A stretch of 64,000 bases of DNA, taken from the sequence record MN850585.1. One strand, given 5' to 3'. Source of the stretch: Escherichia phage skuden. Below are positions 608 to 54,938 of this stretch, piece after piece. The first letter of the stretch is position 1. Each line of letters begins with the position of its first letter. Made by a program: the position numbers and the translations under genes. The notes under the pieces were generated by a model, which was not told the origin of the DNA, searched no databases, and saw only the letters and a program-made list of their open reading frames with translations.

Positions 608-1480
608 TTACATAGAAACCCTGTCACGAATCTCAGCAATTTTTGCATCATTCATTCGGGATTCACCTTTAATCTTAGTCCATCCCAGATATCCGCACAC
701 TCTGTTAATCACAGAGATGTCATGTGAATGGCAAACCTCACATTCTTCAACATCAGCCTTTGGTCTGTTACCACAATGTTCACAGATTGCTAAGTCAAAG
801 TTAAGTCCCTGATAGAAACCTTTCAACATCCCTCTTGTGATACAACTTTTAAGTGCTGTTAAGTTTTCTGGGTTAGCTACCCTTACATACTGGATTCTAC
901 CACCTCTACAGATATGGAAGAATGGTTCTTCTAAGTCCTGCTTCTCAAATGGTGAGATGTCTGCTGCAACATTCATATGGAAACTGTTTGTAAAATATTC
1001 CTTATCAGAAACACCTTTGATAACACCAAACATTTCTCTGAACTGTTTTAGCTGAGTTCCACAAAGTGATTCTGCTGGAGTACCATAGACGGCATATAAG
1101 AAGCCATCTTCATTTTTAAACTCTTCAGTTTTCATGTTGATGTATGCCAGAACATCATATGCAAAACTATAACTTCCAACTTCATGAAGTCGTTTACCTT
1201 CAGCAAGAACAGATAGCTCATCAAGCGCAGTAACCCCAAAAGAAGCTGTGAAGGACTTCACAATATCCCAACCAACCCTGTCAGTAGGCTTCTTAGTTCC
1301 TTTGTACAGACCACCTTGTGTAAATGCAAGAGGGTTAGAACTTGCTGGCATATTGGCAATCATTTCATAGCGTTTCTTGTGGAAACTACGAATCATCTCT
1401 AGGTACTTATCAAGCTCTTTCCAGAAATCTAAACCATTCTCTTTAGAATACTGGTAAATCATTGGTAAGTTCAAAGACAC
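608..1480 (-). CDS. nrdD: anaerobic ribonucleoside-triphosphate reductase, C-terminal exon (true exon start likely near 1500)
   Basis: C-terminal glycyl-radical region RVCGYLG and Cys cluster CEHCG...CEVCHS; frame stays open a few codons upstream of the first Met. Confidence 0.85.
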   Translation of the reverse strand: MSLNLPMIYQYSKENGLDFWKELDKYLEMIRSFHKKRYEMIANMPASSNPLAFTQGGLYKGTKKPTDRVGWDIVKSFTASFGVTALDELSVLAEGKRLHEVGSYSFAYDVLAYINMKTEEFKNEDGFLYAVYGTPAESLCGTQLKQFREMFGVIKGVSDKEYFTNSFHMNVAADISPFEKQDLEEPFFHICRGGRIQYVRVANPENLTALKSCITRGMLKGFYQGLNFDLAICEHCGNRPKADVEECEVCHSHDISVINRVCGYLGWTKIKGESRMNDAKIAEIRDRVSM

Positions 1481-1499
1481 AGCACCAATGTTAGCACGA

Positions 1500-2294
1500 C
1501 CTACATAAAACTCTTCACCATCTTCGTTATGGTATGGTGATAAAAATGCTCTACACTTGTTGTTCAGGCAAGTTCGCTACGCTTACCCCGCTTTATCCAA
1601 GCTGCTTACTGTCACCAGTAAGTCCAGACTATATCTTCTACTTATTTCTAAGTAGCGTACCATTTCGAGTCGCTTGACCCTACACCGCTACATTCATCAC
1701 GGTTAGTCGTTCGGCATTTAGATGTATTCAAATTCATGTTCAAAGTTATTATGCTCTTTTACACCCTTCAATATTGAAGAGATAGTCTTGCGATTATATC
1801 CGAGTATATTGGATAACTCTCGTATTGACTTGGCAGCAATAACTTCTTTTGTCACTTTGTGTGTAGCCTTCACAGCATATGAACGCTTACAAAACTTGTA
1901 GCAACCGTTCTCATAACCTTCTTTAACATTCTCAGAATGAGTTCCCCATTCTAAGTTAGAAGCATGGTTGTTCAGTTTGTTATCATCTTTGTGTTTTACA
2001 ATTGGAAGATTGTTTGGGTTAGGTACATATTTCTCAGCAACTAACCTATGGACATACATGTCACGATTCTTCTTACCGTAAAACTTTACTTTCATATACC
2101 CAGTGTTGGATTTCCACTGTGTAAGCTCTACACCATTTTCTCTAAAGACTCTTCCGTCTTCAGTAACATGATAATTTGGCATGTAATACTCCTATGTTAT
2201 ATAGTTTCTTACATCTTACATCATTTAGCACAGGATTGTCTACATCTGTAGAGTTTCCCTGTTTAGGCACGTTTTAGATGAGCTATAGAGCCTG
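1500..2294 (-). mobile_element. group I intron interrupting nrdD, carrying an HNH homing endonuclease ORF (boundaries approximate)
   Basis: nrdD split into two ORFs about 800 nt apart; minus strand has AAGATATAGTCT near 1627-1638 (11/12 to group I S element as recalled), an R-like GTCAAGCGACTCGAAA near 1660-1680, and P/Q-like CAGGGAAA / AATCCTGTGC near 2215-2260. Confidence 0.6.
1718..2182 (-). CDS. HNH homing endonuclease (intron-encoded)
   Basis: HNH motif region HKDDNKLNNHASNLEWGTHSEN; C-terminal helix-turn-helix-like tail IRELSNILGYNRKTISSIL. Confidence 0.75.
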   Translation of the reverse strand: MPNYHVTEDGRVFRENGVELTQWKSNTGYMKVKFYGKKNRDMYVHRLVAEKYVPNPNNLPIVKHKDDNKLNNHASNLEWGTHSENVKEGYENGCYKFCKRSYAVKATHKVTKEVIAAKSIRELSNILGYNRKTISSILKGVKEHNNFEHEFEYI

Positions 2295-3494
2295 TTAACC
2301 CATCGGGGAAATTACCTTGCCAGAACGCTCAAAAGCCTCTGCTACAGCACCATGACCAGATACACTTAAGAAGTCTGGGTACATAGCTTTAGAGCAACAC
2401 TCAATAGCTTTACTGTACAGGTGACCTTGACAGATGTTCTCATTATGTCTCTTCTGGTCATAAATATAAACCAGTTTAGGGAATACAACAGGTTTCTTGC
2501 TCTTACCTTGTCCATTCATACGAACATCTAGGAGAGTACTTGCAATCATGTATTGCAGTCGGTTATCTTCATTAGACATATCTGAGTCAAGCAACCCGAA
2601 TGTCAAAGTTGTGAATGCAAAATCACCACGGCTACAAGGTACAGTGTTTAGCTTCATTTCTAGTGACTGGAAGCCTTGAGTTAATTCAATCTGTAGCTGC
2701 TCCATGACATAGTTATGGTAATATTCTTTAGGAATACCATAAGATGCAGCTTTCTCAGCATGATAACGTAGAGACTTCTTAGCATACGGTACAAGTACCT
2801 TATCAATCTCTGCTAAAGTAAATCCACCAAATTGCTGTGCAGTTGCTGAAAGAACTACATCACCAATAACCTGCAAGGCTGACAGCACAGACTTCGGTTC
2901 ACAGTATTCGATGCCAGACATTTCAAAGCCACCTTTCAGTACTTTACCAATGTCAAACAGGCAACAGTTTATACCACCAAAAATCAGGTCTCTTAAATCA
3001 TGGATGTAGATAAACCCTTTTTCAATGGCTTCAAGTTCCTCTGGTGTTAAATGGTACTGTTTAAAGATTTCTTTAGTCAGATAACCACGAATAATTGAAC
3101 CTTTTGTAGAAATTAAACTACTGTCAAAGTTAGCATTCTCTCTGTCACCTAAGAAGAGTGTGTCTCTGGTCTTTTGATAAAGTTCATCCCAATTTTGAGC
3201 AACTTCTTTACGGTAATTTCTATATGTTGAGTAAGACTCATAAATCTCGTGATTGACTTCTGCCAAAGCACCTTCAACAATACTGTGAATATCATTTACT
3301 GAAATGAGTAAATTATTCTGCTTAGTGGATTTCACCAGAATCCTCATAAATGCTGACTCAAGAGCTTGGGTAACATCTGGTGGAAGTTCTTTATACCCAA
3401 CCCTATTAGCTGACTTTGTGACTGCTGCTAAAACTTTTTTGATATCAGGTTCTTCGAGTGAGCCATTCTTTTTAATAATCTGTACTTTGTTCAT
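2295..3494 (-). CDS. nrdD: anaerobic ribonucleoside-triphosphate reductase, N-terminal exon (ORF ends in intron-encoded stop)
   Basis: 399 aa; PKLVYIYD...AMYPDFLSV...SPMG resembles T4 NrdD around the intron region as recalled. Confidence 0.85.
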   Translation of the reverse strand: MNKVQIIKKNGSLEEPDIKKVLAAVTKSANRVGYKELPPDVTQALESAFMRILVKSTKQNNLLISVNDIHSIVEGALAEVNHEIYESYSTYRNYRKEVAQNWDELYQKTRDTLFLGDRENANFDSSLISTKGSIIRGYLTKEIFKQYHLTPEELEAIEKGFIYIHDLRDLIFGGINCCLFDIGKVLKGGFEMSGIEYCEPKSVLSALQVIGDVVLSATAQQFGGFTLAEIDKVLVPYAKKSLRYHAEKAASYGIPKEYYHNYVMEQLQIELTQGFQSLEMKLNTVPCSRGDFAFTTLTFGLLDSDMSNEDNRLQYMIASTLLDVRMNGQGKSKKPVVFPKLVYIYDQKRHNENICQGHLYSKAIECCSKAMYPDFLSVSGHGAVAEAFERSGKVISPMG

Positions 3495-9277: not shown

Positions 9278-9775
9278 TCAAGCACGATTTTCTTTCATTA
9301 CCTTATGGATTCTTTTTTCAGCATCTTCATAAGTTTCTTTAGTGATAAACTTAATTGCTGCAATATTGGCATTGTAGAAGAGTCTGAGCTTCGAGTCAAT
9401 CCTTTTTGTCATTACATCGAACTTATGTTGAAGGTTTGCTTCACCATAAACTAGGCCACCTTTTGTGTAGTAGGTTTGGATAATGTAAAAGTCAAAAGAT
9501 TCCTTTCCAAAGCTTTCAATATCTTTTTTAATATACTCAGAAGAAGTCTCATAAGTCATCCAATCACTTTCCTTAGTGACTATCTTCTTCCGAGTCTTAC
9601 CAGCAACTTTTCTTTTGGTCACACTGTTAAGCTGTTTCTTTCCGATATAATATTGTCCAGTCTTCTTACAGTGTACTAAATAGACGAAGCCGAAATGTTT
9701 AGTGGGGTCAACTTCCCCACATAAAGATACCCAATGACCATAGGTAGGGCAATTACCAAAACCTTTAATCTTCAT
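9278..9775 (-). CDS. putative GIY-YIG family endonuclease
   Basis: GFVYLVHCKKTGQYYIGKK matches the GIY...YIG pattern; 165 aa. Confidence 0.45.
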   Translation of the reverse strand: MKIKGFGNCPTYGHWVSLCGEVDPTKHFGFVYLVHCKKTGQYYIGKKQLNSVTKRKVAGKTRKKIVTKESDWMTYETSSEYIKKDIESFGKESFDFYIIQTYYTKGGLVYGEANLQHKFDVMTKRIDSKLRLFYNANIAAIKFITKETYEDAEKRIHKVMKENRA

Positions 9776-16614: not shown

Positions 16615-16673
16615 TTGCTTTTTATAATTTTTTGCAGTAATGTATGAGGTTAATGATTTTAGAGGGAGTAAAA

Positions 16674-19373
16674 ATGGAAAACGTAGATTTTAAAAACTTA
16701 CATTTGGTTGGTGATACAGAAACTGATGGTTTACTCCTTGAGTTCACTAAAGTTCACGTAATGGCTTTCGCAGACTATAAATCTGACGATGAAGAGCCGC
16801 CTGTATGGGTCTTTACAGATGAGCCTATCCTCGGTCACAAGTATACTAAGTATATTAAGGGTGGCTTACGTGAAGGTATTGAGTTTGCGTTAAAGGCAAA
16901 ACGTCTTTGCATCCATAACGGTCTCGGTTATGACTGGTGGGTTTTCAATCACATTGCACCGGATTTATGGAACTTTGATAATCCAAAATGTAAACCGTGG
17001 AGTAATTTCTTTCAGGATTCTCTTATCCAGTCTCGTGTTCAGTGGATGGATAGACCAACTCCAAAGGGCTATAAAGGTGCTCATGGTTTGGCTGCATGGG
17101 GTGCTCGTGTTGGTGTTCGTAAGCCAGAGATTGAGCATTGGGGTGTGTGGAATGCAGAAATCTTCACTCGTGTTGTAGAAGATATCCGTATTAACGCCAA
17201 AACTAAACGGGCACTTGATAACGAGTATCTCAAGCTTAAGAAGTGTGGCATAGACACTTATGAAACCTACATGCGAGCTAAAGAGACATCTTTCTGGATG
17301 AGCCAGCAAGCTATCAATGGTTGGAAAGCTGATAAAGAGCTTATGGAGTTCCATGTAAAGGAACTTGACAAGTTGACTAATGAGCTTGCTTCAGAGGTTG
17401 AACCACATCTACCTCCAACTATTAAGACCAAAGGTAAAGTCACTGGAGAAGAGTTTGCAAAAGCTTGGAATGAGTATGTTGAAACATTTGGTCATGCAGA
17501 TGGACTGAAGAGAATTACCAAGTACCCTAAGACAAAGTACCGTCAGCAGGTACGTAATGGTGAGATGCAGACATATGAAATCAAACCATTTGGTAAGCCA
17601 ACTACAAAGATTTTTAACATTGAAAAGAGAAATTGCTATACACCAACCAACTCTGTAACTGGTGAAGAGTACAAGGAAGGTTTTGTAGCAATGAAGGATG
17701 CTCGTGCAATTTGCAATGAGTTGAATGCAAAGATTGGTAAGAAGTGCAAAGACTGGAAGCCAGTAAAAACAGTTAAAACTGTGAAGTACTATAACAGTCA
17801 TGTTGTTAACCACTTTGAGCTTGAGTCAAGTCGCTACACAGGTTTGATTGATGCACCATATACACCAATTGAGTTCGAAGTTTCTCGTATGACTCAGGTA
17901 GCAGTTGTTAAAGACTACTTGAAATCAGTTGGTTGGGTTCCAGATGACTGGAACTACAAGAAAGACTCAGATGGTCGTCCTGTTAAGGTTTGTCGTTTCA
18001 AAGACAACAAAAAGATGATTACAAAGCATCCTAAGTGGCAGGAAATGGTTGAGCGGTGTGGTTTGAGTTATGTTGAACATGAAGGTGTACAGTACATCGA
18101 GCATAACTGGTCTGTGAAGAAATACACAGATTTGCTTGAGCCTTGCTTAATCCGTACTTCACCAAAACTTACTGAATCATCTTATGATACGATTGAAGGT
18201 GAGCTTGGACAGAAGATTGCGAAGTACTATACTTTGATGCACCGACGTAGAACTATTGAGAACTCAAAGGATGACGAGAAAGGTTGGCTGAACCAGATTC
18301 GTCCTGATGGTCGCCTTAGTGCTGGTGCAATGGTGTTTGGTACTTCAACTGGACGTATGACACAATATGGTATTGTAAACGTACCATCTGGTGCTGCTGT
18401 ATATGGAGCACCTATGAGGGAGGTGTGGACTTGTGAAGATGGTACAGATATCATCTCCGTAGACCAAAACTCAGCCCAGTTAGTTCTTCTTTGTAACTTT
18501 ATGGGTGATGAAGACTTCACTAAAGCGGTAACTGAGGGTAAAGAGTCAGTAGAGTTCACTAAGCAAGATGATGGTAGATACTACTGTAAGCATCTTGACA
18601 AGTATCTTAACCCAGAAACTGACAAGTATCTGCGTTATGATGCTGAGAATGACCTCTATGAAGTCTACACAGGGACTGATGCGCATACACTGAACAGTAT
18701 TTACTTTGGTCTTAACAAAGAAGAGGATATTATTCTTTGTCGGGAGACGCAGGATGAGGAACTTCTTCACGAGATTACAAAGGGTCGTAAAAAGGCTAAG
18801 AATGGCATCTACGCCCTGTTATTTGGAGCCGGAGACGAGAAGTTTGCAAAAACTATCAAAGCATCATCTACGGAAGAGGGTGCATTAACTAAACAAACTT
18901 ACTTTGTACGTCTACCTAAGATTAAAAAGCTGCTTGATAGACTAGAGGAAGACTTCAAAGCAACTAAGAAAGCACTTGAAGAGGTTTTTGGAAAAACTTC
19001 TGCAATTGCCAAAGGTGGTTATATCAAAGTTGCTGGGGCGTGGTTATGGTGTAAATCTCCACATAAGTTATTGAATTACACACTTATGGGCAGTGAGGCT
19101 CAAGTTCAGAATGAAGGTATTAACTTGGCAAACAGGGAACTCACAGAGCGTAAGCTTACAGTACTAAATGGTAGGAAGCCTGCTATTGGTGCTAGGTGGG
19201 TCTGTAGTTACCACGATGAGGTCTCTTTAGAGGTTCCAACCAAAGATGTACCTGATGTTAAGGAGATTATTGATAGAATGTATGGTCAAGCATCAAAAAA
19301 TCTTGGATTAAAGAGTAAGACGCTTGTTACAGGCACTGGTAAGGTAGGTAAGACATGGTACGCCGTACACTAA
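16674..19373 (+). CDS. DNA polymerase, family A
   Basis: Exo I DTETDGL; motif A-like VDQNSAQLVLL; motif B KKAKNGIYALLFGAG; motif C YHDEVSLEV; start set at ATG 16674 with RBS AGAGGGAG. Confidence 0.9.
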   Translation: MENVDFKNLHLVGDTETDGLLLEFTKVHVMAFADYKSDDEEPPVWVFTDEPILGHKYTKYIKGGLREGIEFALKAKRLCIHNGLGYDWWVFNHIAPDLWNFDNPKCKPWSNFFQDSLIQSRVQWMDRPTPKGYKGAHGLAAWGARVGVRKPEIEHWGVWNAEIFTRVVEDIRINAKTKRALDNEYLKLKKCGIDTYETYMRAKETSFWMSQQAINGWKADKELMEFHVKELDKLTNELASEVEPHLPPTIKTKGKVTGEEFAKAWNEYVETFGHADGLKRITKYPKTKYRQQVRNGEMQTYEIKPFGKPTTKIFNIEKRNCYTPTNSVTGEEYKEGFVAMKDARAICNELNAKIGKKCKDWKPVKTVKTVKYYNSHVVNHFELESSRYTGLIDAPYTPIEFEVSRMTQVAVVKDYLKSVGWVPDDWNYKKDSDGRPVKVCRFKDNKKMITKHPKWQEMVERCGLSYVEHEGVQYIEHNWSVKKYTDLLEPCLIRTSPKLTESSYDTIEGELGQKIAKYYTLMHRRRTIENSKDDEKGWLNQIRPDGRLSAGAMVFGTSTGRMTQYGIVNVPSGAAVYGAPMREVWTCEDGTDIISVDQNSAQLVLLCNFMGDEDFTKAVTEGKESVEFTKQDDGRYYCKHLDKYLNPETDKYLRYDAENDLYEVYTGTDAHTLNSIYFGLNKEEDIILCRETQDEELLHEITKGRKKAKNGIYALLFGAGDEKFAKTIKASSTEEGALTKQTYFVRLPKIKKLLDRLEEDFKATKKALEEVFGKTSAIAKGGYIKVAGAWLWCKSPHKLLNYTLMGSEAQVQNEGINLANRELTERKLTVLNGRKPAIGARWVCSYHDEVSLEVPTKDVPDVKEIIDRMYGQASKNLGLKSKTLVTGTGKVGKTWYAVH

Positions 19374-19858
19374 CACTTCAAGATTACAAGGATAATTTTA
19401 TTTACGACCCCGACAAAGGGGTCTTCTACAACAAGTATGACAGGAATAGACAAGCTAAAGCTGGGCAGATTGCAGGAGGTGCTGATGCTTACGGTTACAA
19501 AGTACTTAAATTCAAAGATGTCGTAATAAAAATTCATCACCTCGTTTGGTGGTTCGAACATGGTTACAAACCCACTAAGATGATAGACCACATTGATGGT
19601 AACAGGAGTAATAATCACATTTCTAATCTTAGGGAGACTGATAAATACGGAAATGCTCAAAATAGAGTAAAGCAGACAACTAACAAATCAGGTTACAAGG
19701 GTGTACATTACTTTAAAGACTGCAATAAGTGGAGGGCAGCTATAACATGCAGAGGTAAAAGGACATCACTTGGTTTATTTGACACACCTGAAGAAGCCCA
19801 TAAAGCTTACTGTGAAGCTGCTATTAAACTCCACGGAGAGTTTGCAAAACTGAGTTGA
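19355..19858 (+). CDS. HNH endonuclease with AP2-like DNA-binding domain
   Basis: HLVWWFEHGY...HIDGNRSNNHISNL HNH motif; GYKGVHYF...WRAAI AP2-like segment; overlaps polymerase 3' end by 19 nt. Confidence 0.7.
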   Translation: MVRRTLTLQDYKDNFIYDPDKGVFYNKYDRNRQAKAGQIAGGADAYGYKVLKFKDVVIKIHHLVWWFEHGYKPTKMIDHIDGNRSNNHISNLRETDKYGNAQNRVKQTTNKSGYKGVHYFKDCNKWRAAITCRGKRTSLGLFDTPEEAHKAYCEAAIKLHGEFAKLS

Positions 19859-19909
19859 CAAGGTGCTCAGGGAAGAGTACCTTATACTATATCTTGTATA
19901 GGAGGGCTT

Positions 19910-20119
19910 ATGAGCCACCGTGGAAGAACCCATGCAGCGATGATGAAAGGTGCTTCAAAGGAAACTATCAAGAACCGTAAGCAGAAGTTGTTTGAGAGAA
20001 TGAACAGGTTAATTGACAATTCATCTCTTTCAGGTTCTGAGAAGGTTTTCTTGAAAGATAATCTAAAAAGCATTGCACAAGAACTTATTGACATTGAGTA
20101 TTGGAGACATCAAAAATGA
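19910..20119 (+). CDS. hypothetical protein
   Basis: ORF track 69 aa. Confidence 0.4.
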   Translation: MSHRGRTHAAMMKGASKETIKNRKQKLFERMNRLIDNSSLSGSEKVFLKDNLKSIAQELIDIEYWRHQK

Positions 20120-54854: not shown

Positions 54855-54861
54855 ATTAATT

Positions 54862-54938
54862 TGGTCTCTGTTGGAGGACTTGAACCTCCGGCCTTACCGC
54901 CCCAAACGGAACGCTCTACCAAGCTGAGCTAAACAGAG
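54862..54938 (-). tRNA. tRNA-Pro (anticodon UGG)
   Basis: Acceptor CTCTGTT/AACAGAG, D-arm GCTC/GAGC, anticodon loop TTTGGGG, T-arm GGAGGTTCAAGTCCTCC. Confidence 0.7.

Follow-up and report, generated by a model that had tools for sequence, protein, structure and literature searches.

In Felix O1-type phages, a site behind the DNA polymerase gene is empty or holds one of four HNH-AP2 endonuclease alleles

Introduction

Escherichia phage skuden carries, overlapping the 3' end of its family-A DNA polymerase gene, a free-standing gene for a protein that combines an HNH nuclease motif with an AP2-type DNA-binding domain. We analysed this gene in a stretch of 64,000 nucleotides (nt) of the phage genome (MN850585.1; hereafter the window, whose positions are used throughout) and compared the site with its counterparts in related phages. 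The open reading frame (ORF) at 19355-19858 on the plus strand is likely to encode a functional free-standing HNH-AP2 homing endonuclease that would act at the polymerase 3' end by homing with co-conversion or by marker exclusion, a reading that draws on sequence comparison, a structural model and analogy with phage enzymes of known activity. The gene and its class were already known, as ORF95 of phage Felix O1 and as a recognized class of homing endonucleases, and it is a clear example of a selfish gene of a familiar kind rather than a new kind. What the comparison adds is a site that is either empty or occupied by one of four alleles, transfers that cross genus boundaries, a strict linkage between allele A and its polymerase tail, and a conserved palindrome within the endonuclease gene. 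The window genome is a Felixounavirus; Felix O1 and many isolates of this genus match the region at 95-96% identity.

Results

The site after the polymerase stop codon is empty or holds one of four alleles

The comparison set consisted of 35 loci around the 3' end of the polymerase gene, taken from phage records and IMG/VR contigs, together with the window, and the state of each site was read from the distance between the polymerase stop codon and the conserved element TTGACAAGGTGCTCA. Five states were found among the loci examined. In the empty state, seen in 13 of the 35 loci and including JH2 and Citrobacter phage Moogle, a TTGACA element follows the polymerase stop codon within 5-6 nt. The occupied sites hold allele A (167 residues; the window, Felix O1 and three IMG/VR contigs in this set), allele B (the Alf5 type, 170-174 residues), allele C (the HY02 type, 175-177 residues) or allele D (170 residues), the ATG of which shares one base with the polymerase TGA. 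The four alleles are homologous and have the same architecture, with a mutual identity of 37-57%. At this site the HNH-AP2 gene sits between conserved genes and outside any intron or intein, and no Rfam match at gathering score was found near the ORF.

Phages of the Erwinia outgroup have no HNH gene at this site and their polymerase stop codon lies 3 nt from TTGACA; in Hafnia phage Zyzzx, likewise, no HNH gene follows the polymerase gene, and the downstream sequence is different. Because these outgroups lack the gene, the empty site is most likely the ancestral state. The first-pass annotation of the window, made from the sequence alone, had proposed that relatives lacking the ORF would define the insertion point, and the 13 empty loci and the outgroup genera do provide a precise empty site. 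It had also held that conservation of the ORF at the same position in all relatives would speak against its reading, and the gene turned out to be polymorphic instead. Across phage records, where occupancy was detected through the 3' end common to the alleles, some allele is present in about 155 of about 261 Felixounavirus records, leaving roughly 40% of sites empty, and allele A is confined to 17 phage records out of about 260-300.

The 3' end of the ORF (19790-19858, plus strand; ending in …EEAHKAYCEAAIKLHGEFAKLS) is near-identical in all four alleles, which agree closely over the last 70-100 nt or so of the gene. Nucleotide identity over 19790-19858 is 91-100%, and mostly at least 97%, while the remainder of the gene is either unalignable between alleles or about 76% identical. 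We take this 3' end to be the right-hand recombination boundary of the alleles. Deletion between short ACTAA repeats, which flank the gene in Felix O1 (the right-hand copy is ACTGA in the window), was considered as a source of the empty sites and rejected: the junction observed mismatches the product of such a deletion, and the outgroups are empty as well.

The ORF combines an HNH_3 nuclease module with an AP2 domain

The ORF starts with ATG, encodes 167 residues and overlaps the polymerase ORF by 19 nt, polymerase stop codon included, its ATG lying 16 nt upstream of the first base of that stop codon; the two genes are read in different frames. It matches PHROG 99, 'HNH endonuclease', with an E value of 7e-63. 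In Pfam, HNH_3 (PF13392; cutoff 24.8 bits) scores 44.8 bits over residues 60-98 (19532-19648, plus strand), and AP2 (PF00847; cutoff 33.3 bits) scores 41.3 bits over residues 112-161 (19688-19837, plus strand). A phmmer alignment to I-HmuI (PDB 1U3E) pairs D74-H75, N87 and N96/N99 of that enzyme with D78-H79, N91 and N100/N103 of the ORF, which we take to be the catalytic His and the metal-ligand Asp and Asn residues. Three positions (H79, N91 and L92) do not vary among 33 homologues and four more (D78, N87, R93 and N103) hardly do, and the catalytic D-H...N...N residues are kept in all alleles at the polymerase site.

An AlphaFold2 model of the protein, computed with the 33 homologues as input, has a mean predicted local distance difference test (pLDDT) score of 93.2. 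Its top match in the PDB is again I-HmuI 1U3E (E value 9e-5, probability 1.0), with a low global template modelling (TM) score of 0.43, because the C-terminal domain and the arrangement of the domains differ. The AP2 part of the model consists of three strands (117-120, 125-132 and 135-142) and a helix (145-163). This modelled C-terminal domain superposes on the AP2 domains of TEM1 and AtERF1 with a root-mean-square deviation of 1.1-1.4 Å over about 50 residues, and the AP2 segment matches WRI1, ERF096 and AtERF1 in sequence. By profile, residues and modelled fold the ORF is an HNH_3/I-HmuI-like nuclease module joined to an AP2/ERF domain, for which nuclease and DNA-binding activities are predicted. 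The first-pass description of a 167-residue ORF with HNH and AP2 segments at the polymerase 3' end held in its coordinates and its domains.

Copies of allele A differ from one another with a ratio of nonsynonymous to synonymous substitution rates (dN/dS) of 0.03-0.10. Between allele A and its variant A', described below, dN is 0.10 and synonymous sites are saturated, with 85% amino acid identity retained. The ORF is intact in all 17 allele-A records and in the metagenomic copies. Judging from these substitution patterns, allele A is under strong purifying selection. A tblastn search of the window with the ORF, aimed at HNH-AP2 paralogues, returned nothing beyond a marginal match (E value 0.1) to the nrdD-intron ORF.

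A divergent polymerase tail accompanies allele A

The polymerase gene (16644-19373, plus strand; 909 residues) matches Pfam DNA_pol_A and PHROG 17, is annotated as a DNA polymerase gene in Felix O1 and other phages, and ends in TAA at 19371-19373. Over its first two thirds it is 94-100% identical to close relatives. It then declines in steps, abruptly to 75-85% near 18386-18401 (in the HY02-type phages, near 18880-18900) and further to some 50-58% over 19074-19273, and is about 70% over the last 100 nt. Roughly the last kilobase of the gene is the most mosaic part of a region that is otherwise 93-97% conserved. A nested mosaic tract occupies 18386-19129 (plus strand), with breakpoints at about 18386-18401, 18878-18904 and 19117-19130, and numerous megablast matches stop at 19116-19127.

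Beyond this tract lies a core that is exclusive to allele A (19130-19753, plus strand) and comprises the last 81 or so polymerase codons, including motif C (YHDE), and codons 1-133 of the HNH gene. Exactly 17 phage records contain this core, from about 19130 to about 19753; in each of them it is unbroken, and no record has just a portion of it. Over 19134-19253 allele A has a nucleotide identity of only about 48-50% to every non-A class, whereas the Erwinia phages are about 59-64% identical to the other Felixounaviruses in the same segment and are nearer to them than the allele-A phages are. As protein, the tail shows an identity of at least 95% in the 17 records and of at most 78% in all 288 others; nothing falls between 78% and 95%, and no donor lineage for the allele-A tail was found among cultured phages.

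Polymerase tail and site state go together. The site state of the nearest neighbour by polymerase tail agreed with a concordance of 0.71 against 0.24 expected (reached in 0 of 500 permutations, with overall phage relatedness uncorrected), and of 0.65 against 0.32 when allele A was left out. The concordance was weaker 300-555 nt upstream.

The polymerase gene of the JH2-type phages, unlike the uninterrupted gene of the window, is split by about 760 nt that contain an ORF annotated as 'endonuclease VII' (L003:3358-4122 in our locus set, and also in L030-L034; the equivalent position in the window is about 18816). This insert gives weak matches to group I introns, with E values of 6.5e-4 and 0.51. 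It is a second mobile element, which probably contributes to the mosaicism of the 3' third of the polymerase gene.

Sister alleles have moved between genera

Transfer between genera can be followed for the sister alleles, with the polymerase stop and the HNH stop as boundaries. In the metagenomic phage L026, the polymerase shares about 90% identity with that of Hafnia phage Zyzzx but only about 68% with that of Felixounavirus. Its allele D is nevertheless 93-97% identical in nucleotides to the Felixounavirus copies, against 50-75% in the upstream and about 35% in the downstream flank. Compared with Zyzzx, 77 nt have been replaced by 600 nt, starting about 24 nt before the polymerase stop codon, and these 24 or so nucleotides of the polymerase end are of the Felixounavirus type. 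Such a pattern of identities identifies allele D of L026 as a lateral transfer that appears to have brought along a short co-converted flank.

The second case is the metagenomic contig L037, which over most of the polymerase gene is 95-100% identical to Moogle, a phage with an empty site. L037 carries allele A', 85% identical to A and again overlapping the polymerase gene by 19 nt, and its polymerase tail is 70-80% identical to the A-type tail versus 53-64% to the non-A tails. Direct evidence of transfer comes from alleles D and A'; for allele A itself the evidence is confined to its patchy occurrence and to the foreign polymerase tail that is linked to it. The first-pass reading of the ORF as a free-standing homing endonuclease gains support from the polymorphism of the site, the transfer of sister alleles and the co-variation of the polymerase 3' end with the allele.

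All alleles contain an invariant GC-rich palindrome

Codons 18-23 of the ORF (19406-19423) form the palindrome GACCCC-GACAAA-GGGGTC, which lies 33-51 nt after the polymerase stop codon across loci. GACCCC-N6-GGGGTC is present in all 21 of the 21 occupied loci, in every allele and with arms that are invariant in nucleotides, and it occurs only once in the 64-kb window. Its codons CCC and GGG are the rarest for Pro and Gly, used for none of the 33 Pro and 2 of the 65 Gly residues in the polymerase gene. Among 19 distinct sequences, a single codon is used in five of the 23 columns with an invariant, degenerately encoded amino acid, and four of these five belong to the palindrome arms. As RNA, the palindrome would fold into a hairpin of -12.8 kcal/mol (z -4.4).

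The palindrome is also found, with identical flanks, in an HNH paralogue adjacent to the exonuclease gene (ORF106 of Felix O1, locus L036, and its counterpart in Moogle, L041:637), so that it is a property of this endonuclease subfamily and not of the polymerase site. In two more distant homologues it is partial or absent. We considered whether it is simply forced by the coding of Asp-Pro..Gly-Val and rejected this, since other invariant Gly and Pro columns use three to four codons and the two distant homologues lack the palindrome wholly or partly. Candidate roles are expression control, a self-site for the AP2 domain and a recombination anchor; AP2 domains are reported to favour GC-rich DNA (PMC10448857).

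The gene is a promoter-less cassette between the polymerase gene and a promoter-like element

The HNH-AP2 gene is a promoter-less cassette placed directly after the polymerase gene. A Shine-Dalgarno-like TAAGGTAGGT, which also encodes the conserved GKVGK, lies 6-15 nt upstream of its ATG, and the ORF is probably translated from the polymerase mRNA. On the other side, an element conserved across genera (19855-19909, plus strand) consists of TTGACA, 17 nt and TACCTT, followed by TATAGGAGG and the ATG with which the next gene starts; the Erwinia phages have the same 17-nt spacing from TTGACA to TAYCTT. We call this element promoter-like solely because different genera share its -35 and the distance of 17 nt from there to TAYCTT; a scan for consensus promoters and terminators did not flag TTGACA and detected no terminator near the ORF. 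The HNH stop codon TGA falls within TTGACA and is in this way built into the -35, so that the downstream promoter-like element stays intact.

The first small gene after this element (19910-20119, plus strand) is variable and starts with ATGAGCCACCGT, ATGACACTTTCA or ATGAAACTTTCA in its equivalents in loci L003-L035, which extends the mosaicism downstream of the endonuclease site.

Other mobile elements in the window

Two other nuclease-type genes of the window had been named in the first-pass annotation and could be upheld at the level of domains. One is an intron-borne HNH gene, which corresponds to an HNH_3/NUMOD1 ORF (1718-2182, minus strand) between the two halves of nrdD, the gene for anaerobic ribonucleotide reductase. 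This gene is split within 608-3494 (minus strand), with 2295-3494 covering positions 1-250 of the NRDD profile and 608-1480 covering positions 283-560. Group I intron signals beside the HNH ORF are sub-threshold (1605-1890, 38.9 bits, E value 3e-8; and 2165-2262). The nrdD gene of Felix O1 is uninterrupted, and the insert in the window is therefore another mobile element of the presence/absence kind.

The other is the ORF at 9278-9775 (minus strand), of the SegE-type GIY-YIG family (Pfam E value 6e-28), which directly follows the exonuclease gene. Its homologues are ORF107 of Felix O1, labelled 'NAD synthetase' in RefSeq, and a 'GIY-YIG homing endonuclease' of Moogle. In Felix O1 and Moogle, an additional HNH gene (ORF106) separates the exonuclease gene from the GIY-YIG ORF; it is missing from the window. 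A cluster of 23 tRNA genes (50111-54938, minus strand), all above the Rfam gathering score, is expected for a Felix O1-type genome. Three further records, assigned to Staphylococcus phage SA1 (GU169904.1, 147 kb), Campylobacter phage A126 (MG065668.1) and Listeria phage LPML1 (OK283618.1), contain Ounavirinae sequence that is 88-97% identical to enterobacterial phages; their host labels or assemblies appear to be wrong.

Discussion

A probable homing endonuclease at the polymerase 3' end

The polymerase gene is most likely the carrier of the putative target of the endonuclease. During a mixed infection the enzyme would nick or cut the genome of a rival that lacks allele A, in or near the polymerase 3' end, and, by analogy with other free-standing phage endonucleases, at some distance from the insertion point of its own gene (PMC2988022). 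Repair templated by the allele-A genome would then leave the rival with the endonuclease gene and with the polymerase 3' end next to it. The divergent allele-A polymerase tail may represent a cleavage-resistant version of the target, which would explain why allele A and this tail are never found apart. The nested breakpoints in the polymerase gene, the linkage that weakens with distance and the 24 or so nucleotides of polymerase end that came with allele D fit co-conversion. The enzyme would more probably nick one specific strand than cut both, since I-HmuI, the closest solved relative, and T4 MobE are nicking enzymes.

Several points count against this interpretation. Linkage between tail and allele is expected from physical adjacency alone, and resistance of the tail to cleavage is not proven by it; adjacency combined with ordinary recombination could give a similar picture, so that co-conversion of the polymerase flank is supported by the comparison of loci but not proven. 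The nearest-neighbour test takes no account of overall phage relatedness. Moreover, phages with alleles B, C and D and those with an empty site share broadly similar tails (73-88%), and a distinct tail is clear only for A. Purifying selection could equally mean a benefit to the phage and not ongoing homing, and we found no paper in the literature on the activity of this HNH-AP2 protein.

If the benefit to the carrier is what counts, the nuclease may be a weapon of interference that damages the polymerase gene of co-infecting relatives and so suppresses their replication, with its copying a by-product. Strong purifying selection and a position next to an essential replication gene are both in keeping with this, and the mutually exclusive alleles at one site resemble the competition between I-HmuI and I-HmuII (PMC2988022). 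The intron endonuclease of PhiPA3 is reportedly a precedent for interference competition (PMC11620839). The transfers with co-converted flanks show, however, that copies of the gene do reach other genomes, and we consider interference without homing as its main role unlikely, although the two are mutually compatible and inseparable by sequence.

The protein could also be a domesticated DNA-binding regulator, the AP2 domain controlling either the promoter-like element at its own stop codon or the GC-rich palindrome, and the HNH part no longer acting as a site-specific nuclease. T4 I-TevI, which is both an endonuclease and an autorepressor, lends some plausibility to such a role. The ORF does abut a promoter-like element that is conserved across genera, and every allele has the nucleotide-conserved palindrome, in line with the reported preference of AP2 domains for GC-rich DNA (PMC10448857). 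About 40% of relatives and the outgroup genera nevertheless manage without any gene at the site, the catalytic residues are conserved in all alleles, and patchy distribution with cross-genus transfer fits a mobile element and not a core regulator, which makes domestication very unlikely. Nor does the gene look like a decaying relic whose product has lost its cutting activity and which is merely carried along as ordinary recombination swaps a polymerase module. Many phage endonuclease genes are defective and allele A is rare, with its 17 records, but a relic is unlikely on the sequence record, because dN/dS is low, the records and metagenomic copies are intact and the catalytic residues are conserved; with amino acid identity still kept at 85% where synonymous sites are saturated, we regard it as the least probable reading of all.

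Within the framework of a homing endonuclease, it is tempting to speculate that the Ounavirinae site is an arena of at least four competing HNH-AP2 alleles, each co-adapted with a cleavage-resistant polymerase tail. Allele A and its tail would then be an old pair kept across genera, and the palindrome an element reserved for control or recognition in this endonuclease subfamily, such as an RNA hairpin that limits expression or a binding site for the AP2 domain of the protein itself. We advance this wider picture tentatively, as one that may well prove too generous.

Implications

The finding of the ORF alone re-identifies an annotated gene of a classic phage and adds little. The comparison, in turn, offers a well-resolved natural example of free-standing endonuclease genes shaping an essential gene, in which the state of the endonuclease site predicts the polymerase tail that a phage carries. 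Felix O1-type phages are used in Salmonella typing, in biocontrol and in therapy cocktails, and mixing phages of different site states should yield directed recombination at the polymerase gene. They would also make a convenient system, with many sequenced phage isolates on E. coli K-12 carrying each of the states (empty, A, B, C and D), in which alleles could be set against each other and the logic of target and immunity in HNH-AP2 enzymes put to a direct test.

Comparison with known systems

The ORF is ORF95 of Felix O1 (NP_944955.1, annotated 'HNH endonuclease'), with 99% amino acid identity, the same position and the same 19-nt polymerase overlap, and there is no material difference between the two. 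The Felix O1 genome paper reported six HNH endonuclease genes and no introns, and it counted the HNH genes rather than comparing the polymerase-adjacent locus across relatives (Whichard et al., 2010; PMC3185647). Felix O1 is given as one of the founding HNH-AP2 examples (Magnani et al., 2004, as quoted in PMC4237383). Members of this class likewise join an N-terminal HNH to a C-terminal AP2 domain (Magnani et al., 2004, Wuitschick et al., 2004; the 'IPA-HNH' of Barth et al., 2023, PMC10448857). The ICP1-type IPA-HNH proteins, though, are too divergent for the Pfam HNH_3 model, which the window protein matches directly. HNH-AP2 endonuclease genes adjoin polymerase genes in 29% of cases and often lie at boundaries of genetic exchange (PMC10448857). 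The family is very widespread in phages, with homologues of the ORF in 1187 phage records at an E value of 1e-15 or below; for its members at the present Ounavirinae site, we found no cleavage test in the literature.

For the nuclease half, I-HmuI and I-HmuII of the Bacillus phages SPO1 and SP82 (PDB 1U3E) are the nearest solved structure and sequence relative. I-HmuI is encoded by an intron within the polymerase gene and binds DNA through a C-terminal helix-turn-helix domain; the window gene, in contrast, stands free after the polymerase stop codon and uses an AP2 domain, and the global TM score between the two is only 0.43. Related phages carry different endonucleases, I-HmuI or I-HmuII, at one and the same position of their polymerase genes, and these enzymes nick DNA and exclude the flanking markers of the rival (PMC2988022).

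Free-standing endonucleases of phages cut away from their own gene, co-convert the flanks and cause marker exclusion, and the HNH types MobE and I-HmuI are nicking enzymes (PMC2988022). The window gene resembles T4 MobE and SegG as a promoter-less cassette between conserved genes that uses the upstream transcript and keeps the downstream promoter, and also in the cut expected at a distance in a neighbouring essential gene, with co-conversion (PMC2988022). Endonuclease genes that replace each other at one site are likewise known from SegH and Hef of T4-like phages (PMC2988022). The phage family and the DNA-binding domains differ from those of all these T4 enzymes, and whereas SegH and Hef belong to unrelated nuclease families, the genes that replace each other at the site described here are all homologous HNH-AP2 alleles.

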